The translations under genes and the position numbers were made by a program. From Parcubacteria group bacterium (GTDB taxonomy: Bacteria > Patescibacteriota > Minisyncoccia > Phycocordibacterales > UBA2135): a DNA stretch of 64,000 bases. Positions within the stretch are counted from its first letter, which is position 1. Each line of letters opens with the position of its first letter. The stretch is from contig JACQLQ010000004.1 of the NCBI GenBank assembly GCA_016204045.1, positions 24,981-88,980 on the forward strand. Direction: 5' to 3'. Shown here one piece after another: positions 2,514 to 60,782 of the stretch. Under the pieces are notes generated by a model. That model did no database searches, was not told the origin of the DNA, and saw only the letters and a list, made by a program, of their open reading frames with translations.

Positions 2514-5500
2514 TTGGTGCCTATGGGAGACGAGCTTCTTTTTGAGGGTAAAAAATATGTGTCGGCAAGACGACTTGCTGAGGGAAGCAAATATTCAAGC
2601 GATCACTTGAGTCGACTTGCTCGTGCTAAAAAAATTGACGGTAGGCTTATCGGCCGCAATTGGTTTATCAACCCAGATTCAATAGAAGTCTACCAGCAAC
2701 AATTAAACGGGGATCATCTTTTCAAGGGCGGTGAAAAAAGTTTTGAAAATGAGCAAAGCCGGGAAGCCGACACTACTCAAACCAATAGCCCTAGCACAAT
2801 AGAGCCTACTCCAAACCCGTCCGAGCATGTACAAGTGGACACTCTGCAAAATCCAGTTATTGGAGAGAACGCCGCAGTTACAATCCCAATTACAACTGGT
2901 GTTGAGTTACTATCAGAAATTCCTGAACCATTAAGGACGGAAAGCGCTATAGAACTGACACCGCCTAGCATTGAAACAGATTCATGGGACAATCTCCTCC
3001 TCGGGTCATTAAAAGAGGAAGAAAACAAAAAAGATGTCGTCACAACAGCATCACCACTACCGACGCCAGCTTCGGTAGAACAACCTCTTACAAAGCGGGT
3101 AGCTGATGTTGAAGTCTCGAAAGAAACCGAAACTCCATCAGCATTCGAAAAGTTTCGGGGAACGGGAATGCAGATACTGCGACATGCCAGCAACCTACCT
3201 GTTCAGGCCTGGCAGGCGAGCATGCCATTTATTGAGCTAGGAAAACTGGCGAAAGGGGTTGTGACAGGGTTCCTCATGGTTTCCGCCTTGGGGGGTGGGG
3301 TATATCTGCTTAGAGATACTCCTTACACGACGTACACGACCCTGTTCTCGAACGTCCTAGTGGCAACTCAAGGTGGGGGAGAAAGAATAGCTTCGGTACT
3401 TGCTTCTGGGATGGAAAACGCGACACATCGCATTACGACAGTGGGCAAGGGAAGTATGGAAATCGCCACCCACCCCAACCACTTCTTTTCACGTACACAG
3501 GAAGTTCTAGCCCAAATCATCGATGTTGTCGGGGCAAGTGCTACATATGCATCTGATAGTATCCTGCGACAATACCACCAAATACACACTCGCATATCTG
3601 ATACGAAACAACTAACCGCCGCTCTGCTTGATATCCCGGGAGGTGTGGCTCGTAACCTGTATGACACGATAACGTCACTTTTTGATGGCAATGATGCCAC
3701 GCCGACGACGCAAGACAAAAAAGGTACGCCTGTTACAATCACCGAGAAAGATATCGAAGAGGCGCGCCGGAAACTTCTTGGAGAAGAATCGGGCTCGACA
3801 CGGGCTAACCCCGCTATTGCGGAACCAACTACAAACACGCCGTTGAGGCAAGTCCAATCTGAAATTACACGGCTACAAAATGAGGTGAACCAACTTAAGC
3901 GTTCCGGGATAACGATTGAGTCACCTGTGGCACCCAAACTCGTGGAACGTATTGTCGAGCGCGTCATACCCGGTGTCACACAAACCAACCTCGATGATCA
4001 ACTGAATATCTTGCGAGGGGATATTGCATCTCTACGAAACTCCACCACACAACAAACAAACACAATATACCGTACAGTGGCTCTTTCTCAGAAAATCGAC
4101 CAACTGAACGATGTCACCCTAACTTCTATTACTGTCTCGGGAGTGTCAGGACTCACCAATGCAGACATCCCCGATGACATCACTGTATCGAACTACCTAC
4201 TCCTCACTGGAGGTACGATAAGTGGAAACTTACAAACGACAGGGACCCTCACTGCTTTTGAAGCGGCAACCATTCCGTCGTTCTCTGCCACATCAACAAC
4301 GAATGCTTCAACCATCAACTATCGTCTAGGTATTGGGACATCTTCTCCGTATGCCGCACTTGCTGTAGTGGGAGAAACAGTTTCCACCTACTTTACCGCA
4401 ACCTCAACTACAGCAACCTCTACTTTCTCTGGCCAAGCAGTCTTTAACAATACTCCTGGAGCTCCCCATACATTTGCTTCGTGGGCGACAGGAGTTGCTG
4501 GTGCACAACCGCTTGTTGCTCCACTTGTTGTGAACCCTGCCTCTGCGGGTTCTGATACCAACCTTATTTCCGCTTCTGTAAACGGTGCTGTACGGTTCTT
4601 GATTGACGCCGAAGGAGATATCTATGCGAACGGTATCTTCTCTACGGGAGGCACCACGCTCTCCACAACAACAGCGTCAACCTTTAGTGTGGAAAACAGT
4701 GCAACCCTTGGTGATGCTACGACGACCGACAGCACCTACTTCAACTCACGTATTGGATCTTCACTTATCCCCACCGTGAACAACCTTCTTGATATCGGAG
4801 ACACCACAAATGGGCTTGCGTGGAGGACGGGTATCTTTGCTACATCGCTCGGTATAGGAACGACCTCACCGTGGGGAGTACTCTCTGTAGACGCACCCTC
4901 TACTGCAAACAACATTACTCCCATCTTTGTCGTGGCTGATAAGGGCACCTCAACACCTTTTATCTACGTGTCTGGGATACAGGGAGATGTGGGAATCCGC
5001 ACTAATACTCCTACGTATGCCTTGGATGTGGCCGGTTCAATCCGCGCCACCTCGGTCATTGACGCTTCCTACTTTAGTGCTACCTCAACGACTGCAACCT
5101 CTACCATCGCAGGCTTCCTCGACATTACAGGGACGAACTCGACGTCTACCATATCGGGAGGACTCGACGTCCTTGGCGCTCTTCGTCTTGGCTCTTCACT
5201 CTCGCTCACGTCGACGACGGCAACCACCACACTCGCAGGAGGTCTCGCTCTAGAGACCACCGGCTTCGTCTATGATTTTTCGTCAAACAACGTAGGTATC
5301 GGTACTGCTGCTCCCGGAGCACAACTCCACCTTAACACCGCCTCAGGACAGAATGCCTTCCGCATTGGTTCAACGACCGATCAGTTCATTGTGAACAATG
5401 TAGGGAATGTGGGGGTTGGGACCACATCACCTGGTTCTCTCTTCTCTGTCGACGGTGGGGGAGCCCTCATCACCAACACCAGCTCAAGCCACTCCTTCTA

Positions 5501-7844
5501 TGTTGAAGATGTTGCGGATGATACGACACCGTTTGTGATTGCAAGTAATGGACAAGTCGGAGTAGGAACGACGACAATGACATCTAATATGGAGCTTGTC
5601 ATCCACGGAGATGGTCAAGACGCGAACATCCAACTAGGAAGAAGCAGCGGTGCCCTGTTTGATATTAGGGCAGGACAAGTGACCGAAGGAGTACTTTTCG
5701 CGCTGACCGGGGGCACGGGCAATATGGACTTTTATCACGGAAGTACGATGAATGTACGGTTTGCCAACAGTGGTAATGTTTTCTTCGGCGATTCTTCAAA
5801 TGCCAACATGACGCAGGGGCTTACGATTAACCAAGCTGGAGCCGATAACCAGGCACTTGCCTTTAAATCTTCTGACGTCTCTCACGGCATAACGTCTCTT
5901 GTCGAGCTAGATACCTATGGCGCTCTTGATAAGGCAAGTGGAGACGACGGGGGTATCGAAATCACCGGTTATTCAGAGGATACAGCCGCCTATGCTATCT
6001 ACCTTACGGGGTATGCAGGTACAGCGAACACTGCAAAATCTACGTCTGCTGTAGCACCCACTGTCGTGTATTCTGGAAAAAGAAGCGGCACCTCTGTTGC
6101 TTCCGTAGGTACTGATGGAAACCTGCTGGTAATTCAGGATGTTGGTAGTACCGAATGGCTCGTTGATGCTGAAGGCGATACTTGGCAGAGCGGGGGAGCC
6201 GGGTTTGCCACCTCAACTGCGTGGGGACTTGTCTCAATCGAAAACACCGGATCCGGACCCTCGTTCGTTGTTTCTGACCAGGCGAATGATACGAGTTCAT
6301 TTGTGATTAATACGGATGGAAAAGTCGGAATTGGAACAAACAACCCGTCGTATCCTCTTCACGCAAGCTCGTCTGCCACTGTCGCTGCGCAATTTAACGT
6401 TACCGACGGTACTACGCCTCAAACGGGGACAATTCTCCTCACAACTACTGAAGCGAGAACCGCTGGCCAAGGGGTCTCTATTTCCTTTAATACGCCGACA
6501 ACGGCACCTTCCTTTGAGGACTCTTCAGCAATAGGCGGCCTTGCAGAGGACTCCGTTACTGGGAATCGAGGGGGTTATCTCTCATTTTGGACAAGACCAA
6601 GTGGCGACACACTTCAAGAGCGGCTTCGTATCACAAGCGCAGGCGACGTTTGTGACGTTGGAGGAGTTGATGCCGACTTTACTGACTGCGCCTCTGATAG
6701 TGCTTTCAAGGAAGATATCGTCGGGTACGAATACGGATTGGAAGAACTCCTTGAGCTACGTCCCGTTGAGTTTAGTTGGAATGCGTTAGCACAAAGCAAG
6801 GGATATAAGGGCGGTGTGCGCGTCAACGGTTTTATCGCTCAGGAAGTGGAGACGGTCTTGCCATCCTGGATTAGCACTAACATAGAAGACGGTGGGTACA
6901 AAAAGATTGACGGTGCGGGGGATCTTCCACTTCTGCTCACCAAATCAGTTCAGGAAATTGCCGCCCGTATTAGTCTCACCTCCGCCCCCACCACAACCCC
7001 CTCCCTCTACATCGACTCGGAAGGTCGCCTCGGGGTGGGCACCACAACCCCCGCCTATACCCTCCATGTCATAGGAGATGTGGCGGCAGAAAGTTTTGTA
7101 AACATTTCAACCAAAGAGGCGAAAAAGGACATTTCGTACCTGGGGCATCTCCAGAAAGAATCGCTCTATGAAAAACTCAAAGACTTGGGGGTTGCAACAT
7201 ACTACTACGAACACGAAGATGCAAGCGATGACCCCGAACGTCTTGGGTTGATTGCTGAAGAAGCGCCTGAAGAGGTACTCGCAAAAGGGGGCAAGGGTGT
7301 AGACCTCTATAAACTTGTTACCGCTCTTCTAGCGGCATTCCAGACGCTTGCAGAGAAGGTGGAGAAGCTTGAAGATGCGGCCGTCACCGGTGTTGCGGCA
7401 GTAACTAATTCCTTTAGCGAATTATTCGCGAGCAAGTTGACCATAACCAACCTCTTGTGCTTGGGAGACACCTGTATCGGCGAATCGGAACTGCAGTCAC
7501 TCCTCACTAATGCGGGGTTAATCGCGACATCAACAACTCCAGTAGTTGAAACCCCAGACGATGAAGAAGCGCCCGATACTGAAGCGCCGACGATAACTAT
7601 TACCGGAGCGAACCCCGCGGAAATTGAGCTTAATGCCGCATATTCCGACAATGGTGCGACAGTCGCAGACAACGTAAACGGCAATCTCGGATATACAACA
7701 TACGTTAATGGCATCCTAATGACGCCAGTCCAACTTGATACAGCAACAACAACCACACATCTTATCGATTACGTGGCTACTGACAGCGCGGGAAACACTG
7801 CCACATCAACACGAACAGTGAATATTGTCGCGCCGCAAAATTAG
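2514..7844 (+). CDS. Giant (1776 aa) membrane-anchored surface protein: tail-fibre-like beta-helical repeats, two tandem intramolecular-chaperone (Peptidase_S74-like) domains and a C-terminal Ig-like DUF5011-like domain
   Basis: Single uninterrupted ORF. N-terminal about 230 aa is cytoplasmic. One TM helix (GVVTGFLMVSALGGGVYLL). At least 7 repeats of (V/I)G(I/V)GTxxPxxxLxV. Two copies of the S74 motif (S-D-S-A-F-K-E-D-I ... GFIAQEVETVLP and S-T-K-E-A-K-K-D-I ... LIAEEAPEEV). C-terminus TITITGANP...YVATDSAGNTATSTRTVNIV resembles DUF5011. Confidence 0.8.
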   Translation: MVPMGDELLFEGKKYVSARRLAEGSKYSSDHLSRLARAKKIDGRLIGRNWFINPDSIEVYQQQLNGDHLFKGGEKSFENEQSREADTTQTNSPSTIEPTPNPSEHVQVDTLQNPVIGENAAVTIPITTGVELLSEIPEPLRTESAIELTPPSIETDSWDNLLLGSLKEEENKKDVVTTASPLPTPASVEQPLTKRVADVEVSKETETPSAFEKFRGTGMQILRHASNLPVQAWQASMPFIELGKLAKGVVTGFLMVSALGGGVYLLRDTPYTTYTTLFSNVLVATQGGGERIASVLASGMENATHRITTVGKGSMEIATHPNHFFSRTQEVLAQIIDVVGASATYASDSILRQYHQIHTRISDTKQLTAALLDIPGGVARNLYDTITSLFDGNDATPTTQDKKGTPVTITEKDIEEARRKLLGEESGSTRANPAIAEPTTNTPLRQVQSEITRLQNEVNQLKRSGITIESPVAPKLVERIVERVIPGVTQTNLDDQLNILRGDIASLRNSTTQQTNTIYRTVALSQKIDQLNDVTLTSITVSGVSGLTNADIPDDITVSNYLLLTGGTISGNLQTTGTLTAFEAATIPSFSATSTTNASTINYRLGIGTSSPYAALAVVGETVSTYFTATSTTATSTFSGQAVFNNTPGAPHTFASWATGVAGAQPLVAPLVVNPASAGSDTNLISASVNGAVRFLIDAEGDIYANGIFSTGGTTLSTTTASTFSVENSATLGDATTTDSTYFNSRIGSSLIPTVNNLLDIGDTTNGLAWRTGIFATSLGIGTTSPWGVLSVDAPSTANNITPIFVVADKGTSTPFIYVSGIQGDVGIRTNTPTYALDVAGSIRATSVIDASYFSATSTTATSTIAGFLDITGTNSTSTISGGLDVLGALRLGSSLSLTSTTATTTLAGGLALETTGFVYDFSSNNVGIGTAAPGAQLHLNTASGQNAFRIGSTTDQFIVNNVGNVGVGTTSPGSLFSVDGGGALITNTSSSHSFYVEDVADDTTPFVIASNGQVGVGTTTMTSNMELVIHGDGQDANIQLGRSSGALFDIRAGQVTEGVLFALTGGTGNMDFYHGSTMNVRFANSGNVFFGDSSNANMTQGLTINQAGADNQALAFKSSDVSHGITSLVELDTYGALDKASGDDGGIEITGYSEDTAAYAIYLTGYAGTANTAKSTSAVAPTVVYSGKRSGTSVASVGTDGNLLVIQDVGSTEWLVDAEGDTWQSGGAGFATSTAWGLVSIENTGSGPSFVVSDQANDTSSFVINTDGKVGIGTNNPSYPLHASSSATVAAQFNVTDGTTPQTGTILLTTTEARTAGQGVSISFNTPTTAPSFEDSSAIGGLAEDSVTGNRGGYLSFWTRPSGDTLQERLRITSAGDVCDVGGVDADFTDCASDSAFKEDIVGYEYGLEELLELRPVEFSWNALAQSKGYKGGVRVNGFIAQEVETVLPSWISTNIEDGGYKKIDGAGDLPLLLTKSVQEIAARISLTSAPTTTPSLYIDSEGRLGVGTTTPAYTLHVIGDVAAESFVNISTKEAKKDISYLGHLQKESLYEKLKDLGVATYYYEHEDASDDPERLGLIAEEAPEEVLAKGGKGVDLYKLVTALLAAFQTLAEKVEKLEDAAVTGVAAVTNSFSELFASKLTITNLLCLGDTCIGESELQSLLTNAGLIATSTTPVVETPDDEEAPDTEAPTITITGANPAEIELNAAYSDNGATVADNVNGNLGYTTYVNGILMTPVQLDTATTTTHLIDYVATDSAGNTATSTRTVNIVAPQN

Positions 7845-10565: not shown

Positions 10566-11012
10566 ATGAAAATAATATTACTGCAGGACGTGCCAAAGGT
10601 CGGTCGGAAATACGAGGTCAAAGACATTGCGGATGGCTTCGCACGCAATTTGCTCATACCTCAAGGGAAGGCAGAGGTGGCAACTCAAGGGGCCCTACTT
10701 CGTGTAAAGAAACATGGAGAAGAGCGCGCACGCAAAGGAAAGGAGTGGGAAGCAACTCTGGCCAAGGCCCTTACCAAAATTGACGGACAGATTGTGACGC
10801 TCGTACTCAAAGCCAATAGTAAGGGAAGTTTATTTGAAGGGATTGACGGAGAACGTGTTCGCCTCGCCTTGCAAGAGAAAACCGGAACAAGTGTTCCGGT
10901 TGAATCTCTAATCTTTGATGCCCCCATTAAGAAAGTAGGGGAGTATGAGATTAAAGTGGAGGGAGGTAAAAAGGAAGCCCGCTTTACGCTCAAGATAGAA
11001 GCGAGTCAGTAG
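10566..11012 (+). CDS. rplI: 50S ribosomal protein L9
   Basis: 148 aa starting MKIILLQDVPKVGRKYEVKDIADGFARNLLIPQGKA, the canonical L9 N-domain. Confidence 0.9.
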   Translation: MKIILLQDVPKVGRKYEVKDIADGFARNLLIPQGKAEVATQGALLRVKKHGEERARKGKEWEATLAKALTKIDGQIVTLVLKANSKGSLFEGIDGERVRLALQEKTGTSVPVESLIFDAPIKKVGEYEIKVEGGKKEARFTLKIEASQ

Positions 11013-11020
11013 GGAGAGTG

Positions 11021-11293
11021 TTAGACAACAGAGACTCGCTTTCGCCTCCACGTCTTTCCTGTGTAATGAGTCTTCCGAATCTCTTCGAACTTGACAATAC
11101 CATCTTTGAGCGCAAAGAGGGTGTGGTCCTTACCAACGCCAATGTTTTTCCCCGGAAGGATTTTGGTACCTCGCTGTCGTACCACGACAAAACCCACTTT
11201 GGTTTTTTGACCATCGTGCACCTTGGTTCCGAGATATTTCGGGTTTGAATCCGTTAGGTTTTTTGCCGAGCCACCTGCTTTCTTATGTGCCAT
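11021..11293 (-). CDS. rpmA: 50S ribosomal protein L27
   Basis: 90 aa: [29 protein letters not shown]...[29 protein letters not shown]. Confidence 0.93.
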
Positions 11294-11368
11294 AAAATAA
11301 CGAGTATTTTAGCGAGTATATTTTATGAGCACCGAGCACATAATGCTTTATGTGCTCCGGTGCCAAAG
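11287..11368. repeat. Inverted-repeat arm A (82 bp), partner of 13954..14032. Includes the rpmA start codon plus 5' leader
   Basis: Direct comparison: reverse complement of 13954..14032 matches 11287..11365 at about 71/79 positions. Both arms begin GTGCCATAAAATAACGAGT and contain the internal tandem CGAGTRTTTTA x2 and the near-palindrome GAGCACCGAGCAYATAA. Confidence 0.7.
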
Positions 11369-11380
11369 TCGTAATCTACT

Positions 11381-11758
11381 ATGCTACCTGATATCCTAGA
11401 AAAAGTCAAAGTAGCGTTCCGCACACTCGATAGGCAAGAGGACTGGTTTATTATTGCCCTAATTATATTGGTTGGTTTCGGGGGATTCGGGCTAGGACGG
11501 CTTTCGACTGACAAAGAAGCTAGGGAGTCTATACAGATCGAGCAGAACACGTCCCTGGGCGCTCTAGGATCCGTCAACGACCTTGGTGGGGCAATCCTGG
11601 GGCAGGTTGTTGCCTCTCGAAACGGCGGAAAATATCATTTCCCATGGTGTTCTGGGGCAGCGCGTATTACTGAAACAAATAAGGTTTGGTTTCAGAACGA
11701 GGAAGATGCGCAAAAAGCGGGATATACTCCAGCAAGTAATTGCCCTGGACTTAAATAA
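11381..11758 (+). CDS. Small membrane-anchored protein with Ada-like metal-binding domain
   Basis: 125 aa, one N-terminal TM helix. C-terminus GKYHFPWCSGAARITETNKVWFQNEEDAQKAGYTPASNCP resembles the Ada N-terminal Zn-binding fold. Confidence 0.4.
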   Translation: MLPDILEKVKVAFRTLDRQEDWFIIALIILVGFGGFGLGRLSTDKEARESIQIEQNTSLGALGSVNDLGGAILGQVVASRNGGKYHFPWCSGAARITETNKVWFQNEEDAQKAGYTPASNCPGLK

Positions 11759-11766
11759 AACACAGT

Positions 11767-12003
11767 ATGGAAAAAAATCTTAAAAAAAGTGCGATAACTG
11801 TCCTGGGCGGAGCATTTATTGTTATTGGCTTAGGGGGGCTGGTCTTGCCTTTTGTCCAAGGTATCCTTTTTATCTTCCTCGGCATCTATTTACTCTCAAT
11901 GGAGTATCAGTGGCTTAAGACAAAACTGAGCCACCTTGAGGCAAAAAACCCAACGCTAGATCGATACGCTAAGCGGTTTCGTGCTTTTTTTGATAAGATA
12001 TAA
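11767..12003 (+). CDS. Small two-TM membrane protein (PGPGW-like)
   Basis: 78 aa, two hydrophobic helices, GGLVLPFVQG motif. Confidence 0.4.
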   Translation: MEKNLKKSAITVLGGAFIVIGLGGLVLPFVQGILFIFLGIYLLSMEYQWLKTKLSHLEAKNPTLDRYAKRFRAFFDKI

Positions 12004-12015
12004 CCATAATTTGGC

Positions 12016-13239
12016 ATGGTGTATTTTACCCACAAACTGAATAGGGGATTCGTTTCGCTTTTTTCCTCACAAGCCATACGGAAGATGGCCTTGTCCCTCC
12101 TCACTGTTTTCTTGCCTATTTTCCTATTCGAGCTTTTTGACGAAAATATTTTCCTGGTCCTGGCCTTCTTTGGTGTAGCATCTTTTATGTACGCTTTTTT
12201 GCTACCACTTGGCATGCAATTCATGAATCGGTTTGGATTCAAGCGCGCCTTAATCCTTGGATCTATTTTTGGGATGCTCTATTTTGCAATCCTGGCGTTT
12301 ACCGACGCGGAGAATGTGCTTCTCCTTATTCCACTCGCACTCGTCGTGACAACGCTCTTCAAACTTTTTTTCTGGATTCCATACCATGTAGACTTTGCTA
12401 AGTTTGCGGATCCGAAAGATCGCGGGAAGGGAGTTTCTGCTATGTATGCCATGGTCTCTATTACAGGTGTTGTGGGACCCATCGTCGCCGGGTATATTTT
12501 GGATCAAACAGGTTTTGGTGTGCTCTTCTCGGTTGTCATTGCATTATATGCTCTCTCGCTCATCCCGCTCTTCAACTTGCCACAAGTAAACGAGTCGTAT
12601 AGCTGGGGATATGGCGAGACGTGGAATAAGCTTCTTTCGCGTGAATACCGACACCCGCTCATCGCTATTACCGCGTTGGGTGTCGAGAACATCATCGCAA
12701 TCGCGGTGTGGCCCCTCTTTGTTTACCTCCTTCTCAAGGGGGACCTCTTTAATGTCGGGGTTGTCTCGACCGTCATCTTCGGAGCTGTCGTCATCCTCCA
12801 GCTTGGGATGGGTAAGTTTCTGGACACTTCGGAGGGAAAACGCTACCAAACGCTCCACATTGGAAGTATCCTCTCCGCCGTCGGCTGGATTGGAAAAATG
12901 TTTGTCGTGACCGCATTTCACATCTTCATTGCCGGTTTTTATCATGGAATTACGAAAATTTTCACCGAGACGCCCTTTGACACGCTTGTATATGAAATTG
13001 CCGCAGACCAAGGGCACTACGTTGACGAGTTCACTGTATTAAAAGAGATGGCCCTCCAAATTGGCCACGTTGTCGGTATCGCAGGAACCATGCTTGCCCT
13101 TTTCTTCTTCTCTATTGAATGGACATTCCTCATTGCCGCCGGAGCAACTTTGCTCTTCAATATTCTCTACTACAGAAAGCGAGACATGCACATGCTCGTA
13201 GGGCGCCACACTGTGCCACACATGGCATTGCATAGGTAG
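12016..13239 (+). CDS. MFS-type transporter
   Basis: 407 aa, about 12 predicted TM helices, MFS-like loop motif (DPKDRGKGVS). Confidence 0.6.
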   Translation: MVYFTHKLNRGFVSLFSSQAIRKMALSLLTVFLPIFLFELFDENIFLVLAFFGVASFMYAFLLPLGMQFMNRFGFKRALILGSIFGMLYFAILAFTDAENVLLLIPLALVVTTLFKLFFWIPYHVDFAKFADPKDRGKGVSAMYAMVSITGVVGPIVAGYILDQTGFGVLFSVVIALYALSLIPLFNLPQVNESYSWGYGETWNKLLSREYRHPLIAITALGVENIIAIAVWPLFVYLLLKGDLFNVGVVSTVIFGAVVILQLGMGKFLDTSEGKRYQTLHIGSILSAVGWIGKMFVVTAFHIFIAGFYHGITKIFTETPFDTLVYEIAADQGHYVDEFTVLKEMALQIGHVVGIAGTMLALFFFSIEWTFLIAAGATLLFNILYYRKRDMHMLVGRHTVPHMALHR

Positions 13240-13241
13240 AA

Positions 13242-13270
13242 AAAGCTGGCTACCCAAGGTAGCCAGCTTT
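13242..13270. terminator. Bidirectional intrinsic terminator between convergent MFS and CDF genes
   Basis: Perfect 13-bp stem AAAGCTGGCTACC/GGTAGCCAGCTTT with a 3-nt loop and flanking A/T tracts. It lies between the stop at 13239 (+) and the stop at 13274 (-). Confidence 0.6.
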
Positions 13271-13273
13271 GAT

Positions 13274-13888
13274 TTAGTGAGAATGCCCGTGCTCGGAGCC
13301 AAACGCGAGCTTTAACGCTTGATAAAAAATCCAAAGTGCAATCACAAGTGAGAGAAGGGGGTCGACGAGGAACCATCCAAATGCCCACATGGTAACGCCA
13401 CCGACAACCACGGCCATACTCAACACCAAATCAGAGAAGATGTGCTGCAATAACGCCTCGTGGTTCTCTGTCGAGGCCTTCAGCATCTTGTGCTGGAAAA
13501 AATTTCCGATGCCACCGATGGAGGCAATGACGACGATGACGACAGGGCTTACGACCGGAACTGGATTTGTGAGACGCTCGAACGTCTCAAAAGCAACGGT
13601 ACCAGCCAAGAGAAACAGTAGCCCGATATTAATCCTCGAAGCTACCTCTCGCGCCTTGTTCTGTTTCCACAAGCGCATAAGCACGAGAGCACCGATCGTC
13701 ACTACAATTCCTGCACTGTCGGTAAACACATGCCCAGCATCGGCCCAAAGAGCCAAGCTTCCTGAATACCATCCGCCGAAAATCTCGAGAATTAAGATCG
13801 CTATGGTGAGCCCAAGTACCAACGAGAGCCGTCTGACCTCACACCAACACGTGGCGGGGCCAGGGCAGTCAGGGTAGTGTCCTGCCAT
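13274..13888 (-). CDS. Cation diffusion facilitator family transporter (membrane domain only, no C-terminal cytoplasmic domain)
   Basis: 204 aa. CDF signature SLALWADAGHVFTD, His-rich C-terminus (SEHGHSH), 5-6 TM helices. Confidence 0.65.
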   Translation of the reverse strand: MAGHYPDCPGPATCWCEVRRLSLVLGLTIAILILEIFGGWYSGSLALWADAGHVFTDSAGIVVTIGALVLMRLWKQNKAREVASRINIGLLFLLAGTVAFETFERLTNPVPVVSPVVIVVIASIGGIGNFFQHKMLKASTENHEALLQHIFSDLVLSMAVVVGGVTMWAFGWFLVDPLLSLVIALWIFYQALKLAFGSEHGHSH

Positions 13889-13953
13889 GGGAAACTTCCG
13901 CCACTTGAAATTCTAAGATTTTTATAGCATACTGCTAGCACATTGTCATTGTA

Positions 13954-14032
13954 TGGCACCAAAGCACATAACGCGTTATATGCTCGGTGCTCATAAAATA
14001 CACTCGTTAAAACACTCGTTATTTTATGGCAC
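13954..14032. repeat. Inverted-repeat arm B (79 bp), partner of 11287..11368. Includes the start codon and leader of the PduO-type gene
   Basis: See arm A. Both flanking genes start ATGGCAC inside the repeat. Confidence 0.7.
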
Positions 14033-14697
14033 TCTACACCGGAAAAGGGGATGCGGGGACAACAAAAGTGATCGACTCAAAGGAGCGTTTTTCAAAGGCC
14101 TCAAGACTCGCTGAGGCGCTGGGGTCATTAGACGAGCTCAACTCGTTTATTGGGCTTTGCAAAATAAAGGCGTCCTCGGGGCAAGCCGCGCGGCATTCGC
14201 CTATGTTTCGTCTTCGCTCGGACGAAATGAGAACACGCTCTCATTTCGCATCTTCGCTCGACGAAATAAAATCAGAAGACATTGACTCTGAATCTGTTCG
14301 TGTAAATGGAAAAGAGGTGAGTGTGTCCTATATACTCCACGAGGTACAAGAAAACCTATTTATCGTGCAAGCTCAAGTGGCGGGGTCTGATAAGAAAATC
14401 GTTAAGAAAAAAGTAACGCAAGCAGAACGATATATAAACACTATAGAGAACATTATTCCGCCTATCAAAGGATTTACTATTGCGGGGGCAACCGAGCTCT
14501 CGGCGCTTCTCGATGTAGTCCGTACCATAGCTCGGAGGACTGAGAGGAGAGTGGTCTTACTGCACGATACAAAAGAGCGGAAACTCACCAAAGATACTTT
14601 GGCGTACATGAACCGTCTTTCATCGCTCCTATTTGCATTGGCGCGCCTTGCCTCGCACCAAGCGGGTGTAAAAGAGAGAACTCCTACATATCGCTAA
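14026..14697 (+). CDS. PduO-type ATP:cob(I)alamin adenosyltransferase family protein (with about 45-aa insertion)
   Basis: 223 aa. N-terminal MALYTGKGDAGTTKV...LDELNSFIGL and C-terminal helices match the PduO/MMAB fold. A low-complexity insert ARHSPMFRLRSDEMRTRSHFASSLDEIK is atypical. Confidence 0.55.
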   Translation: MALYTGKGDAGTTKVIDSKERFSKASRLAEALGSLDELNSFIGLCKIKASSGQAARHSPMFRLRSDEMRTRSHFASSLDEIKSEDIDSESVRVNGKEVSVSYILHEVQENLFIVQAQVAGSDKKIVKKKVTQAERYINTIENIIPPIKGFTIAGATELSALLDVVRTIARRTERRVVLLHDTKERKLTKDTLAYMNRLSSLLFALARLASHQAGVKERTPTYR

Positions 14698-15557: not shown

Positions 15558-15569
15558 CTTGATGTACGG

Positions 15570-15591
15570 GCGGCTTGAGAAGCCGCTTTTT
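15570..15591 (+). terminator. Intrinsic terminator of the methyltransferase gene
   Basis: GCGGCTT-GAG-AAGCCGC hairpin followed by TTTTTG, 13 nt after the stop. Confidence 0.6.
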
Positions 15592-15779
15592 GATTTCTGC
15601 TGAATAGTGGGGTCGCCAGACAAAGAAGGGGTAGGCTGGTTCAAGCTTGATGTAGCGTCCTACAATATACATTTTGAGACACTAAAGCCCTCCAAGGGCG
15701 GTTAGTGTCTTAAAATGTGGCGATATTGCGGGACATTACGGGCAATGTCCCGCAATATCTTTTAGGACGTTACTATCAA

Positions 15780-22645: not shown

Positions 22646-22671
22646 TCACAAACTATAGCATTGACCGTATA

Positions 22672-22727
22672 AACAAAAAAGAGCCCCCGCAGCCTCCGTG
22701 TCGAAGCTTTCGCTCGACACGGAGGCT
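22672..22727 (-). terminator. Intrinsic terminator of the GC-rich 558-aa gene (minus strand)
   Basis: Perfect 14-bp stem AGCCTCCGTGTCGA/TCGACACGGAGGCT, loop AGCTTTCGC. On the minus strand it is followed by GCGGGGGCTCTTTTTTGTTTAT. It sits between the 558-aa gene stop and the mraY start. Confidence 0.7.
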
Positions 22728-22795
22728 TTGGGAAGCCCTGCGCACCAGGTTAAGGTGCCAATCTACGCGGTTACTAAAGTGCTACTAGGGTGCGG

Positions 22796-24472: not shown

Positions 24473-24600
24473 CTTGGGTTTCCTTCTTCAGTGCTCCTTC
24501 GGAACATCCCACAATGGGATGTCTCGTGGAGCGATAAACATACTCAAGGTTACACGAGACCCTGCCTTCTTAGGGGCAAGGTATCTGTAGTATAGTATAG

Positions 24601-24642
24601 CAAATTAAAAGAGCCCTGTCAAGTGCTACCTTGACAGGGCTC
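24601..24642 (-). terminator. Intrinsic terminator of the beta-CASP gene (minus strand)
   Basis: Perfect 13-bp stem GAGCCCTGTCAAG/CTTGACAGGGCTC, loop TGCTAC. On the minus strand it is followed by TTTTAATTTG. Confidence 0.7.
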
Positions 24643-24749
24643 GGGGGGTGCCGATATGGCCTTATTTCGTCAAGCGAGGACGGCAAGTGGAGACGCTTTA
24701 GGCGGCTCCACTTGCTCCGAGCGAAGACGAAATATAAGACGAAGTGCTT

Positions 24750-26210
24750 TTACACCCCAAGGATAAATAAAGAACCGTTTCGATCCCGCGTGGGTGGGAA
24801 ATGTATTTTTGTCTTCCCATCCGCCGCAAATGACGAGGCATCGGCACCCGAAATATAGCGTTGCACACCACGCTTGTCACCATGGACAAAGACCAAATGT
24901 TGCGGGTTCATGCCCCGCGCAAACTGCTCCAGTTGGTCCGTCTCAGCGTGACCAGACATGCGTTCATCGATAACAGTGGCGTTGATCGGATACCACTGCT
25001 TCCGACGGCTTTTTCTGCCATCGGGTAGCTGGATCGCCTTACTCTCGAGGAATCTGTCCGCCATGGCTTCGCGGAGCAAACCTGCTGGTGTGTCCTCACA
25101 GGCGTAGCCTGACAAGAAAACACCATGTCCCCTTATGGGCAAGAGTAGCTTCATCCACTCAACCGCGGCCCCTTGCCCCATGCCGCCAGTTGCGATGACA
25201 ACACCCGACCAACCGGACTTGAGCAGCTTTTCGCGGTCCGCTTGACCTTGTACACCTTGCACGGTGTGCAGATGCGCGCTGGGGAGGAACCCCCTCGTCA
25301 TCTCGGCGACCTTGATGCCGACTCCGTCCAGGAGGATCTTCTCGGGTGGCATTCCGTTTCTCACCAAATCTTCCACAAACCACTGAACGCGATCGCGGAA
25401 TGAAAGGATGAGCGCTATGCCACCATGGTCGACGATGTTTTCTACTCCGGAGAAAAACTCCTCTTTTGCCTCCTCGCGGCTTTTCCGCGATTTGGCATTA
25501 AGATTTGTCGCCTCAGAGATGAGCATCGTTGTCCGACGCATCTGCAAGAAGAGTGCTGGAGACAAGTGCGGGTTCGGGGTAAATGAAATGTCCCCGGTGT
25601 GGAAGATCGTCTCACCCCAGGCTTCGATGCCCGGCGAAACAGATCCCAATGTGTGCCCGGCGTCTGCCGGCAGCAACTTGATGCCTTCCGCGAGTTGGAT
25701 TTCCCGACGCGGCTTAATGAAATTGATACCGCTTTTGATGCGGGCGATGTGCGCACGGGTGAAGCGTGGCGTATGGTCTGCCCACCCCCTCCCCTGCATA
25801 TCTCGCGCATCTTCTTCCCATAGCATCGCCGCAAATGCGGCTGTTTCTCGTGTCATCAAGATGCGAATGGGCAATCCCGGAAATTCCTGCTCCACTCCGA
25901 GCACAATGAGGATCAGTGCACCGCTGTGGTCAAAGTGTTCGTGTGTGAGCACAATGACAAGTTCAGTCACACCTGAACGCAAGAGCTCATAGAGCCCCTG
26001 CATGTCGGGCAAACTCTTGTCATAGTGCTCGGGGTCACGCGACGTTCGAGGGTCGCGCCCCGCATCAATCATGACGGCTATCTTTTGCCGTCCACTTTGG
26101 AGCAAAATCACGTGGCAGCTTGCGCCAATTTTCTGCGCGCCACCAAGGAAAGCAACACTAATACTTCGAGACATCCGTAATGCCTTTCGTCGCTTCGTGT
26201 GAAAGACCAA
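24750..26210 (-). CDS. Metallo-beta-lactamase fold hydrolase of the beta-CASP (RNase J/CPSF-like) family
   Basis: 486 aa. MBL motif 2 VLTHEHFDHSGA, downstream His/Asp motifs, and beta-CASP-like motifs B/C (ERMSGHAETDQ..., HLVFVHGD). Confidence 0.65.
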   Translation of the reverse strand: MVFHTKRRKALRMSRSISVAFLGGAQKIGASCHVILLQSGRQKIAVMIDAGRDPRTSRDPEHYDKSLPDMQGLYELLRSGVTELVIVLTHEHFDHSGALILIVLGVEQEFPGLPIRILMTRETAAFAAMLWEEDARDMQGRGWADHTPRFTRAHIARIKSGINFIKPRREIQLAEGIKLLPADAGHTLGSVSPGIEAWGETIFHTGDISFTPNPHLSPALFLQMRRTTMLISEATNLNAKSRKSREEAKEEFFSGVENIVDHGGIALILSFRDRVQWFVEDLVRNGMPPEKILLDGVGIKVAEMTRGFLPSAHLHTVQGVQGQADREKLLKSGWSGVVIATGGMGQGAAVEWMKLLLPIRGHGVFLSGYACEDTPAGLLREAMADRFLESKAIQLPDGRKSRRKQWYPINATVIDERMSGHAETDQLEQFARGMNPQHLVFVHGDKRGVQRYISGADASSFAADGKTKIHFPPTRDRNGSLFILGV

Positions 26211-26281
26211 GAGTCTTACTCAAGTATACTACTATAAAATAAAGAAAAAGTCAAATCGACTACGTTTTGGGCTGTATATGC

Positions 26282-40742: not shown

Positions 40743-40862
40743 TCCCGTACGAAATAGGACACGGACACGTGCTGACTTCAATCCACAATTGTTATCTCTA
40801 TTAACAATAGATGGCGATGCCGTGTCGGTGTTTTTTGAAAGTGTCCGTGATTTCGTACGGGA
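40743..40862. repeat. Inverted-repeat element copy 1 (outer arms TCCCGTACGAAAT/ATTTCGTACGGGA, inner arms AGGACACGGACAC/GTGTCCGTG, about 73-nt spacer)
   Basis: Read from the sequence. The spacer contains the palindrome TTGTTA-N7-TAACAA. It lies 8 nt upstream of the grpE ATG. Confidence 0.6.
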
Positions 40863-40986
40863 TGAGAATATTATATGATAAGTTTAAAAAACGTCAAACC
40901 CCGATACCAAAAACCCCCGCGGGGGTTTTGAGAAATGAGGGTTGGTGTGCCACTTCCGATTACGGCGGACTGTTTCAAGACATTGA

Positions 40987-43678: not shown

Positions 43679-43758
43679 AAGCGTTTAGCGTTAAGCGTTT
43701 AGCTCTTAGGACCTGTTGTTCATGCCTAATTGCTAGACGCTAACCGCTTAAATTAAAA

Positions 43759-44375: not shown

Positions 44376-44810
44376 CTATACCCTTCTTGGTTTAGGTGCA
44401 CGAGGGCCATTAAAGGGCCGCGGTGTTTCGTCGCGAATTGAGTGGAGTTCAATGCCCTTACCCGAAAAGGCGCGCAACGCCGCTTCGCGGCCGGCACCAA
44501 CACCGCGCACAACCACATCCGCGCTTTGCATACCCAACAATTGCGCTTGCTCCCCGACGAGCTCACCAACCTTTGCCGCGGCGTAGGGTGTCCCCTTCCT
44601 GGTTCCACCGAAGCCAAGGCTTCCACTCGATGACCACAGAACAGCGCGCCCGTCCTTGTCTGTAACAAGAAGCTTCGTGTTGTTATACGTTGCCTGAATA
44701 TGGAGGATGCCGTGCGGAACCTTCCGTTTGCTCCCCCTAGCAAGAGAACGGGCCCGCATCTCTGCGTTGTATCCCGCTCCGCCTTTTTGTGCTGTACGCT
44801 TTTTTCCCAT
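44376..44810 (-). CDS. rpsK: 30S ribosomal protein S11
   Basis: The ORF-track 226-aa ORF has an about 82-codon spurious N-extension with a GTG start. The core from MGKKRTAQKGG... to the C-terminus is canonical S11. Confidence 0.9.
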   Translation of the reverse strand: MGKKRTAQKGGAGYNAEMRARSLARGSKRKVPHGILHIQATYNNTKLLVTDKDGRAVLWSSSGSLGFGGTRKGTPYAAAKVGELVGEQAQLLGMQSADVVVRGVGAGREAALRAFSGKGIELHSIRDETPRPFNGPRAPKPRRV

Positions 44811-45076
44811 GCCAAAAATTAAGGAATGAATGTTGTAATGAATGACTAAAATTTTTGAGCACCCAGCACTTATTTTGCCTCCAACTATCCCGCGCGGTGC
44901 GGCTGCCGAATAGGCAGACCCCTCTTTGCGCGAAGCGCTGCGCCCCTTGAGGGATGCGGCTGTCCGCCGCTCGCGCTTCGCACAATGGTTCGGTGCAAAA
45001 TAAGTGCTGGGTAAAGGTTTGGCAGTCGCCATTTCTACCTCCCAAAAGAGGGGCACAAATGGCGAGCCAATTCGCT

Positions 45077-45623: not shown

Positions 45624-45636
45624 TTTGTTTTCGGAA

Positions 45637-45659
45637 GTGTCCGTGATTTCGCACGGGAT
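45637..45659. repeat. Inverted-repeat element copy 2 (right half only: GTGTCCGTGATTTCGCACGGGAT)
   Basis: Nearly identical (about 30/32 nt with flanks) to the right half of copy 1. It lies 14 nt upstream of the rpmJ ATG. A degenerate left-arm-like stretch falls inside the rpmJ coding sequence. Confidence 0.45.
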
Positions 45660-59578: not shown

Positions 59579-59893
59579 CTATTCCCCTCCCAAAGTAAGA
59601 CCCACAAGCTGTCGTTCGGTGACGAAGACTTTAGTAGTTGGTTCTACGAAGCCGAGCGTGCGCGCTGTATCCTGATGTAAGGTATTTTTGAGCGTATTAT
59701 ACTCCTTTTCGAGCCCCGCCAACAGGGCTTGACGCTCATCAATCGTATCTTTGACTACCTTGTATTCCACCAGCGCAAACGTGCGCGCGTTGACCAAAAA
59801 TGCATACGACACGACGACGAGTGCGCATGAAAAGAGAAGCACCCAGAAGAGCCGTTTCTCAAATGTATTTACTTGTCGTGTGAAATTAAGCAT
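59579..59893 (-). CDS. ftsL: FtsL-like cell division protein
   Basis: Start trimmed to MLNFTRQV..., which removes the overlap with rsmH. One TM plus coiled coil. Its position between rsmH and ftsI is canonical. Confidence 0.5.
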   Translation of the reverse strand: MLNFTRQVNTFEKRLFWVLLFSCALVVVSYAFLVNARTFALVEYKVVKDTIDERQALLAGLEKEYNTLKNTLHQDTARTLGFVEPTTKVFVTERQLVGLTLGGE

Positions 59894-60782
59894 TGATCTT
59901 TTGTATAATCCGCAACTTTGCGCTTCGCGCACGCGGGTTCTTTCGCACCTCCTCAGGGGTCCCCTCAATCGGTTTTTTGGTTATGATTTGAAACTCTGAT
60001 GTCGGTAAATCACGGAAAATGTGTTTAACGATTCGGTCTTCACCGCTGTGGAAACTGATAACGGCAATGCGTCCTCCGGGGGTGAGCATGCGAAGAGCCT
60101 TTTGAAGCCCCTCCTCAATCGCTCCAAACTCGTCGTTAACCGCAATGCGGAGCGCCTGGAAGGTCTTGGTCGCCGGGTGTATCTTCCCCTTCCGAAAGTG
60201 CGCGGGGATGCTGTCTTCGATGATCGAGACGAGCTCGTATGTGCCGAGGATATGCTTTTCTCTTCGACGCTCGACGATTCGACGTGCGATTCTCTTAGCA
60301 AATTTTTCGTCACCATATTCGGCAAGGATGTACGCAATCTCTTCTTCTGCCCATGTATTCACTATCGCGGCGGCTGTTTCCGCCTCTCTCGGCGGGTCTG
60401 CGTCATAGGTCATGAGGAGCGGCTCATCTTTCATGAAGGAAAATCCTCTGCCTGATTCTGTGAACTCTTCGAGGCGTATCCCGAGGTCGAAGAGAACCTT
60501 GTCGATTGCGCTCAAGCCAAGTTCACGGAGCACGGAGTCGAGATTTCTGTAGTTTGATTTCCTTAAGATGACCTTCGTCTTGGTGCGAGCAAGATGCTTC
60601 TCCGCTTCTCGGAGTGCCGCCTCATCAAGATCAAGTCCGACGAGTGTCCCTTCGCTTCCGATCCGCGCACATATCTCTCGAGCGTGGCCACCATTGCCGA
60701 CAGTCGCGTCTAGGACAACGTCGCCAACCTTGAGGGCAAGACCTTCTAAACTTTCTTGTAAAAGAACAGGAACGTGTGCCAT
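59886..60782 (-). CDS. rsmH: 16S rRNA (cytosine1402-N4)-methyltransferase RsmH (MraW)
   Basis: 298 aa. MAHVPVLLQESLEGL..., SAM motif LDATVGNGGHA, FQALRIAVNDE. Confidence 0.9.
   Translation of the reverse strand: MAHVPVLLQESLEGLALKVGDVVLDATVGNGGHAREICARIGSEGTLVGLDLDEAALREAEKHLARTKTKVILRKSNYRNLDSVLRELGLSAIDKVLFDLGIRLEEFTESGRGFSFMKDEPLLMTYDADPPREAETAAAIVNTWAEEEIAYILAEYGDEKFAKRIARRIVERRREKHILGTYELVSIIEDSIPAHFRKGKIHPATKTFQALRIAVNDEFGAIEEGLQKALRMLTPGGRIAVISFHSGEDRIVKHIFRDLPTSEFQIITKKPIEGTPEEVRKNPRARSAKLRIIQKINA

Follow-up and report, generated by a model that had tools for sequence, protein, structure and literature searches.

Probable start-codon insertions of a small hairpin-forming element in a Parcubacteria genome

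In a 64,000-nt stretch of DNA from a Parcubacteria group bacterium (GCA_016204045.1, contig JACQLQ010000004.1, positions 24,981 to 88,980; hereafter the window, numbered from its first letter), the divergently oriented genes rpmA, which encodes ribosomal protein L27, and a PduO-type adenosyltransferase homologue both begin inside the arms of an inverted repeat. Our analysis supports, with a probability of about 0.7, the view that the arms represent two copies of a small insertion element, non-coding and hairpin-forming, here called family A, which landed on start codons in one Parcubacteria lineage. A family-A copy would consist of a 66-nt AT-rich core and a 6–7-nt duplicated target, (A)TGGCAC, and its insertion on the rpmA and PduO-type start codons would postdate the split from the nearest sequenced relatives. 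Because the duplicated ATGGCAC would restore a start codon right behind the element, both genes could survive the event.

An earlier note on this DNA, made from its letters, had described an inverted repeat of about 80 bp and about 90% identity with ATGGCAC gene starts, a tandem CGAGTRTTTTA unit and a near-palindrome in its arms, and this description was confirmed throughout. A repeat search of the window placed the arms at 11287-11365 and 13954-14032, each 79 nt long, 90% complementary and 2588 nt apart, and a direct alignment recounted complementarity at 71 of 79 positions, rather than the identity well below 80% that the note had named as speaking against the repeat. Two 19-mers derived from the arms each occurred at no more than two places in the window, those in the arms, with up to three mismatches allowed, against an expectation of 0.01. 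ATGGCAC closes both arms as the start of rpmA and of the PduO-type gene, the tandem unit (CGAGTRTATTTTA) is present, and the near-palindrome is a 16-pair hairpin. The note had overlooked that (A/T)TGGCAC stands at both borders of each arm, at a spacing of exactly 73 nt. The agreement of two independent Logan assemblies (SRR12113383 and SRR12113384), which match the window with 100% identity over both arms, excludes an assembly artefact. No perfect match between the arms is longer than 20 nt, and the T/C state of the tandem units is uniform within a copy and different between the two arms.

A comparison with relatives resolved each arm into a 73-nt unit on a start codon. At the PduO-type gene (copy 2, 13953..14032, plus strand), a distal ATGGCAC at 13953-13959, the old start, is followed by a 66-nt core (13960-14025) and a proximal ATGGCAC at 14026-14032, the present start; at rpmA (copy 1, 11287..11366, minus strand), the distal repeat is TTGGCAC (11360-11366), the core occupies 11294-11359, and the proximal ATGGCAC (11287-11293) is the rpmA start. 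In the closest relative in the databases, GCA_016204005.1 (L007), whose PduO-type and MFS proteins are 70% and 80% identical to those of the window, positions 4665-4671 align twice by BLAST, to window 13951-13957 and to 14024-14030, giving a 7-nt junction that appears twice, 73 nt apart, so that the window contains 73 extra nucleotides, namely the 66-nt core and a second ATGGCAC. The PduO-side flanks align well between the two genomes, including a nearly identical promoter-like site, TTGAAA-17-CATACT (13905..13933, plus strand), upstream of the old start, and the distal ATGGCAC at 13953 occupies the position of the PduO-type start codon of L007.

On the other side, rpmA begins ATGGCACAT both in L007 and in a deeper outgroup, GCA_016180525.1 (L024), whose MFS protein is 52% identical to that of the window. 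No trace of the core was detected at rpmA of L007, nor at rpmA of L024, where the best local score of 23 equalled background and nhmmer returned no match. Since both relatives are without the element, its absence at the rpmA site is ancestral and the gain occurred in the lineage of the window. The site is single-copy in L007 and L024, and the window has direct repeats 73 nt apart, ATGGCAC/ATGGCAC at the PduO-type gene and TTGGCAC/ATGGCAC at rpmA. At both places the element is oriented alike with respect to the gene, and the two target genes are divergent; the inverted repeat therefore arises from geometry alone. In L007, the spacer between rpmA and the neighbouring 126-aa gene (2039-2073) is mostly a TTTAAAC-type tandem repeat (GTTTAAACCTTTAAACTTTTAAACC) that is not alignable to the spacer of the window. 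At other genes of the window, start-codon k-mers duplicated upstream occurred at a chance-level count, and no other case was structured; rsmH/MraW (59886-60782, minus strand) starts with ATGGCAC without an element, representing an unoccupied potential target site.

The core has a G+C content of 36%, compared with 50% for the window, and each short copy is predicted to form two hairpins. Hairpin 1 of copy 1 (11328..11364, minus strand; GGCACCG-G-AGCACATAA / AGCA / TTATGTGCT-CGGTGCT) contains 16 pairs with a predicted RNA folding energy of −29.1 kcal/mol, and its counterpart in copy 2 (13955..13991, plus strand) is weaker on the sense strand owing to A.C and C.A mismatches, while the antisense strand is intact with G.U pairs. 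Sense-strand RNA folds gave z values of −4.3 (copy 1) and −2.3 (copy 2), and the DNA folds −7.4 and −2.6, respectively. Hairpin 2 of copy 1 (11291..11327, minus strand; CATAAAATA ... TATTTTATG) holds the rpmA ATG in its 3′ arm and the tandem ACTCGYTAWWW repeat in its loop; hairpin 2 of copy 2 (13992..14028, plus strand) likewise holds the PduO-type ATG in its 3′ arm and is extendable through pairing of GGTGC (13987-13991) with GCAC (14029-14032). Each flanking repeat contains a GCAC complementary to this central GGTGC box, which could therefore close either hairpin 1 or the extended hairpin 2.

Both old starts open an upstream open reading frame (ORF). That of copy 1 (11283..11366, minus strand) runs from the TTG at the old start through 27 codons to a TAA overlapping the rpmA start (ATGGCACATAA), and that of copy 2 (13953..14114, plus strand) begins at the old ATG, has 53 codons and, in another frame, reaches 88 nt into the PduO-type gene. 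Of the eight mismatches among the 79 arm positions, six would be non-synonymous in the upstream ORF, which marks the element as non-coding. No Rfam 15 family reached its gathering score over the window, and the covariance scan for riboswitches that the earlier note had proposed for the leader gave no match even at E ≤ 10; the two matches obtained at that limit in 10900-14400 lie elsewhere and are at chance level. The window contains no tRNA or tmRNA genes. Inside the arms, no promoter reached the threshold of a sigma-70-like scan, and no TGnTAnnnT box was seen by eye. A CIRCE/HrcA operator was considered for the AGCAC palindrome and set aside, as its half-site layout is unlike that of CIRCE, a comparison made without a dedicated tool.

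A third, diverged copy of 222 nt (44811..45032, minus strand) is located between a Shine-Dalgarno (SD) sequence with an ATG at 45032 and the start of rpsK, encoding ribosomal protein S11, at 44810. Its local alignment to the short copies scored 46-48 against a background of 20 ± 3.5 with a maximum of 32 in 286 random windows, and an nhmmer profile built from the two arms alone gave a weak match at the rpsK spacer (E = 0.012); a profile of all three copies reached E = 1.9e-12 there, a circular value, as copy 3 is included in the profile, which we do not use as evidence. The S13-S11 spacer measures 266 nt in the window (44811-45076) versus 42-51 nt in relatives, whose S11 proteins comprise 144 aa and start ATGGGAAAAAA. 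Excising the 222 nt between the ATGG at 45032 and the ATGG at 44810 yields GGGAGGTAGAA-ATGGGAAAAAAG, a normal SD-ATG arrangement with a 44-nt spacer. Copy 3 keeps the AGCAC...GTGCT stem, the GGTGCTCA box, a tandem repeat and a 3′ end TGGCA beside the ATG, and has a GC-rich module of ~128 nt nested in hairpin 1, which found no significant match among other intergenic regions or in a second hairpin family of the window (family B, described below). Its hairpin 2 is AT-rich, with three pairs altered on both sides, and the GGTGC:GCAC pairing is kept. The rpsK spacer folds with z = −7.3 against dinucleotide shuffles and −14.7 against mononucleotide shuffles. In addition, the 222 nt are in frame and stop-free, as are 4.4% of shuffles, and S11 may carry a 74-aa N-terminal extension from the SD-preceded ATG at 45032.

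The position of the arms relative to transcription signals suggests what the insertions might do. The rpmA promoter-like site, TTGACT-17-TAGCAT (11381..11409, minus strand), is followed 14 nt further on by the distal TTGGCAC, and resembles the site at 26212-26255 before the gene at 24750-26210, in which TTGACT-17-TAGTAT is followed after 15 nt by a TTG start. Because the geometry from promoter to TTGGCAC equals that before gene 24750-26210, the distal repeats are read as the old start sites. In the window, the first genes of transcription units are mostly preceded by an extended −10 box (TGnTAnnnT) at a distance of just 6-15 nt from the start codon and lack an SD, so that their mRNAs would be leaderless or have very short leaders; operon-internal genes do have GGAGG-like SDs. 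Lying between promoter-like site and ATG, the arms are probably transcribed as near-identical leaders. Insertion would thereby convert a very short leader into one of ~80 nt with a 16-pair hairpin, a second hairpin holding the AUG, and an upstream ORF from the old start, and at rpmA the overlap of the upstream TAA with the start codon could permit termination-reinitiation. The note had entertained a duplicated promoter/leader module; the leader half of that idea agrees with the placement of the arms, and the remainder does not, as the arms have no promoter match of their own, belong to no Rfam family and are recent insertions rather than a conserved device.

Several points weigh against the interpretation of the arms as a mobile insertion element. 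Only three family-A copies are known, all within the one 64-kb window, and mobility is thus deduced from three insertion sites rather than from many dispersed copies. Exact 19-mer scans of GTDB genomes and of JGI metagenomes gave four matches each, of 19-21 nt, in unrelated contexts and at about the number expected by chance; the hairpin-1 pattern had no match in IMG/VR, blastn found none in phage and plasmid collections, and nhmmer, run with profiles of two or three copies, recovered nothing at the loci of relatives or in the 3.6 kb beyond the window edge. These same scans, with chance 19-21-mers or nothing, give no backing to a widespread repeat or generic promoter, the outcome that the note had named as refuting its observation. 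No transposase, recombinase or invertase was recognised by Pfam among the ~60 ORFs of the window. Terminal inverted repeats (TIRs) are absent, as the 5′ 35 nt against the reverse complement of the 3′ 35 nt score only 6-8, in a gapped alignment that is not terminal. Instead of being a true target-site duplication, the 3′ TGGCA(C) may come from the element, the polarity on the PduO side is read from L007 as the sole relative, and no relative is close enough to place the junctions of copy 3 exactly, where the duplicate could be ATGG or TGGC.

The four genes between the arms bear directly on how the repeat should be read. They are flanked by rpmA (11021-11293, minus strand; Pfam Ribosomal_L27, 6.6e-31) and the PduO-type gene (14026-14697, plus strand; Pfam Cob_adeno_trans, 3.9e-40), and encode a 125-aa protein (11381-11758, plus strand), a 78-aa PGPGW protein (11767-12003, plus strand; Pfam PGPGW), a 407-aa MFS transporter (12016-13239, plus strand; Pfam MFS_1) and a 204-aa CDF protein (13274-13888, minus strand; Pfam Cation_efflux). 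Three of the labels given by the earlier note (PGPGW, MFS and cation efflux) thus hold by Pfam, whereas its 'Ada-like' label for the 125-aa protein has behind it only a sub-threshold Ada_Zn_binding match (E = 0.012; 16 bits against a cutoff of 23). The gene order in L007 is identical to that of the window, comprising S41 peptidase, L9, L27 on the minus strand, a 126-aa protein, PGPGW, MFS, CDF on the minus strand and PduO on the plus strand, with spacers of 35 and 63 nt at the two sites versus 87 and 137 nt in the window, and no inverted repeat was found at this locus. L024 shows partial synteny, retaining S41, L9, minus-strand L27 with the 125-aa gene and plus-strand MFS, and also lacks the repeat. 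The linkage of these genes to rpmA is therefore older than the repeat, and, judged by gene order, the four enclosed genes are ancestral residents outside the element and not mobile. In more distant Parcubacteria (L010-L013), the PduO-type gene lies directly downstream of rplS (L19), and thus keeps the company of ribosomal-protein genes in this clade. To our knowledge, cobalamin synthesis is not expected of Candidate Phyla Radiation (CPR) genomes.

This gene order makes it highly improbable that the arms are terminal inverted repeats bounding a mobile cassette of the four membrane and transporter genes that has no transposase, one of the readings entertained in the note, which had compared the 2.7-kb unit to a miniature inverted-repeat transposable element (MITE). 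Geometry alone speaks for such a cassette; L007 has the same four genes without the repeat, L024 has part of them, the start codons of the outside genes fall within the arms, and each arm has its own flanking direct repeats. The check that the note had suggested, a relative with rpmA beside the PduO-type gene and no cassette between them, came out the other way, as all four genes lie between them in L007. The term MITE-like fits each single 73-nt arm, not the 2.7-kb unit. Very little can likewise be said for inversion of the 2.6-kb segment, also proposed there, by which the repeats would swap the rpmA and PduO-type promoters in a phase-variable manner. A 79-nt, 90% identical inverted repeat with promoter-like sites next to each arm on the enclosed side would suit such a switch, but the interior points the same way in the metagenome-assembled genome (MAG), in both independent assemblies and in the relatives without the repeat, the window encodes neither an invertase nor a recombinase, and a longest perfect identity of 20 nt together with eight fixed differences speaks against frequent exchange.

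Two further alternatives accept the arms as units in their own right. In one, the 73-nt unit had a single origin, and microhomology-mediated template switching or ectopic conversion through ATGGCAC placed a copy on the second start at a distance of 2.7 kb; the proximity and inverted arrangement of sites sharing an ancestral ATGGCAC heptamer, the very low copy number and the lack of TIRs and of a transposase in the window are in its favour. We nevertheless consider it unlikely, given that a flanking direct repeat is present at both sites and not just at a recipient, that a third, diverged copy lies 31 kb off at rpsK, that the unrelated family B has the same flanking-repeat signature, and that the arms differ at 8 of 79 positions. 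In the other, the arms are retained as a shared cis-regulatory module, either an RNA leader, such as a structural or protein-binding switch at the AUG, or a palindromic DNA operator (GAGCACATAA-N4-TTATGTGCTC), coordinating rpmA, the PduO-type gene, rpsK and possibly the divergent cassette genes, a possibility that is compatible with a mobile origin and that we regard as a minority view of some weight. It would account for the shared orientation and position relative to the start codon in all three copies, for two of three genes encoding ribosomal proteins, for the PduO-type gene adjoining rplS in more distant relatives, for the ability of GGTGC to pair with either the upstream or the downstream GCAC in two alternative structures, and for tandem units that share their T/C state within a copy and differ between copies. 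Against it stand the lack of an Rfam match at E ≤ 10, the fact that the closest relative L007 and the outgroup L024 do without the element, and the mismatches on the sense strand in hairpin 1 of copy 2.

Taking these observations together, family A, read as an insertion element, is best labelled a small non-autonomous repeat comparable to MITEs, repetitive extragenic palindromic (REP) sequences and Rickettsia palindromic elements (RPE), of which all known copies lie on or at start codons that they regenerate. MITEs are shorter than 500 bp, non-coding, bounded by TIRs of ~4-30 bp, flanked by direct repeats and dispersed in multiple copies alongside a related autonomous IS or transposase, and the transcripts of MITEs and of the Correia elements (CREE) of Neisseria form stable stem-loops, these elements often lying just upstream of genes, where they join the mRNA and alter expression (PMC10969869). 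Family A is similarly small (73 nt, or 222 nt for the S11 copy), non-coding, AT-rich, direct-repeat flanked, stem-loop-forming and located just upstream of genes. By contrast, Correia elements and MITEs are defined by TIRs, occur in tens to hundreds of copies and often contain promoters or IHF sites, whereas family A lacks TIRs, has three copies and contains no promoter match; furthermore, none of those elements has been described as landing on and regenerating a start codon. RPE form hairpins, occur in a reduced genome and are tolerated in genes by keeping the frame (PMC10969869), a feature shared by the 102-nt in-frame insert of family B and by the S11 copy with its in-frame, stop-free 222 nt. 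Unlike RPE, which measure ~100-150 bp, lie within ORFs and encode a conserved peptide, the family-A copies of 73 nt have a length not divisible by three, precede the ORF and duplicate its start.

Other comparisons concern the ends and the structure of the element. Like members of the IS200/IS605 group, including REP/RAYT and PATE-like elements, family A has no TIRs, a subterminal hairpin at each end and an orientation-specific position beside a short sequence. In IS608, target and cleavage sites are recognised through pairing with a guide sequence that lies 5′ of the hairpin foot (PMC3201880), and the internal GGTGC box of family A, 5′ of hairpin 2 and complementary to both flanking TGGCAC, resembles such a guide. 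All family-A copies lie 3′ of (A/T)TGG(CAC), yet the same sequence is repeated at their 3′ end; IS608 neither gains nor loses sequence and has different left and right cleavage sites, TTAC and TCAA, whereas family A has the same 6-7 nt at both ends. The window encodes no recognisable Y1/HUH TnpA, and the copies occupy both strands without a GC-skew switch from one to the other, so we treat the likeness to IS608 as an analogy only. REP/REPIN sequences are high-copy, extragenic 20-40-bp palindromes associated with RAYT, unlike the low-copy family A at start codons, and the window encodes no RAYT. A structured 5′ leader before ribosomal-protein genes with the start codon within a helix is also reminiscent of ribosomal-protein leaders and riboswitches, but family A has no Rfam match, lacks conservation in relatives and also precedes a non-ribosomal gene.

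A bolder version of the insertion hypothesis, which we think improbable, would make family A an undescribed CPR mobile element that homes to translation starts through pairing of the GGTGC box with TGGCA(C), typically the Met-Ala ATG-GCA, moves as a single strand in the manner of IS200/IS605, inserts in one orientation and rebuilds the start codon, thereby acting as a mobile translational control module for near-leaderless genes, including those for ribosomal proteins. If the association with start sites reflects targeting rather than survivorship, it would represent a new route by which a selfish element can persist where genes are densely packed, and, were such targeting true, the insertions would form a natural experiment in which leaderless genes became leadered genes.

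Small repeats have barely been described in CPR/Patescibacteria, and a full-text literature search combining MITEs with 'Candidate Phyla Radiation' found nothing related; the window shows at least two families of hairpin insertions in a streamlined Parcubacteria genome, at places normally deemed untouchable, including the start codons of rpmA and the PduO-type gene, the rpsK start, and, in frame, the interior of an enzyme gene. There is also a practical warning, in that an inverted repeat around genes need not mean a mobile or invertible unit, and an annotation hazard, as such insertions yield false upstream ORFs and N-terminal extensions.

Family B, which is unrelated to family A, is represented by a strongly folded 102-nt insert with AAATAAA flanks inside the PduO-type gene (14169-14270, plus strand). 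The insert is in frame, adds 34 aa to the PduO-type protein and is missing from all seven aligned homologues. A related copy lies in a convergent intergenic region (24662-24747, minus strand; score 71, background 23.6 ± 4.6). The two copies share a conserved outer stem, TTTCGTC...GACGAAA, and their inner stems differ with pairing retained. Because this unrelated family is present as well, the genome accumulates small hairpin elements of more than one family. Two Logan contigs (L001 and L002) both terminate within the family-B insert, at 14205 and 14233, which suggests either more near-identical copies elsewhere or heterogeneity in the population between sequences with and without the insert.

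A third short motif family, ATCCCGTRCGAAATCACGGACACTT in its minus-strand reading, occurs at 40832-40863, at 45628-45659 and as a related inverted pair at 47462-47484/47575-47597. The motif immediately precedes rpmJ (L36) and also lies upstream of grpE, and the inverted pair is found upstream of a 498-aa ORF; it could be a shared regulatory hairpin. Strong predicted intergenic folds were found at 15558-15779 (z = −10.9), 22646-22789 (z = −6.3), 24596-24749 (z = −7.4) and 43679-43758 (z = −6.8), the first of which holds a perfect 16-bp palindrome (15722-15759) and resembles back-to-back terminators. Finally, a 1776-aa ORF (2514-7844, plus strand) combines a Peptidase_S74 (endosialidase chaperone) domain with a C-terminal Ig-like surface domain, and its product is probably a giant surface protein.

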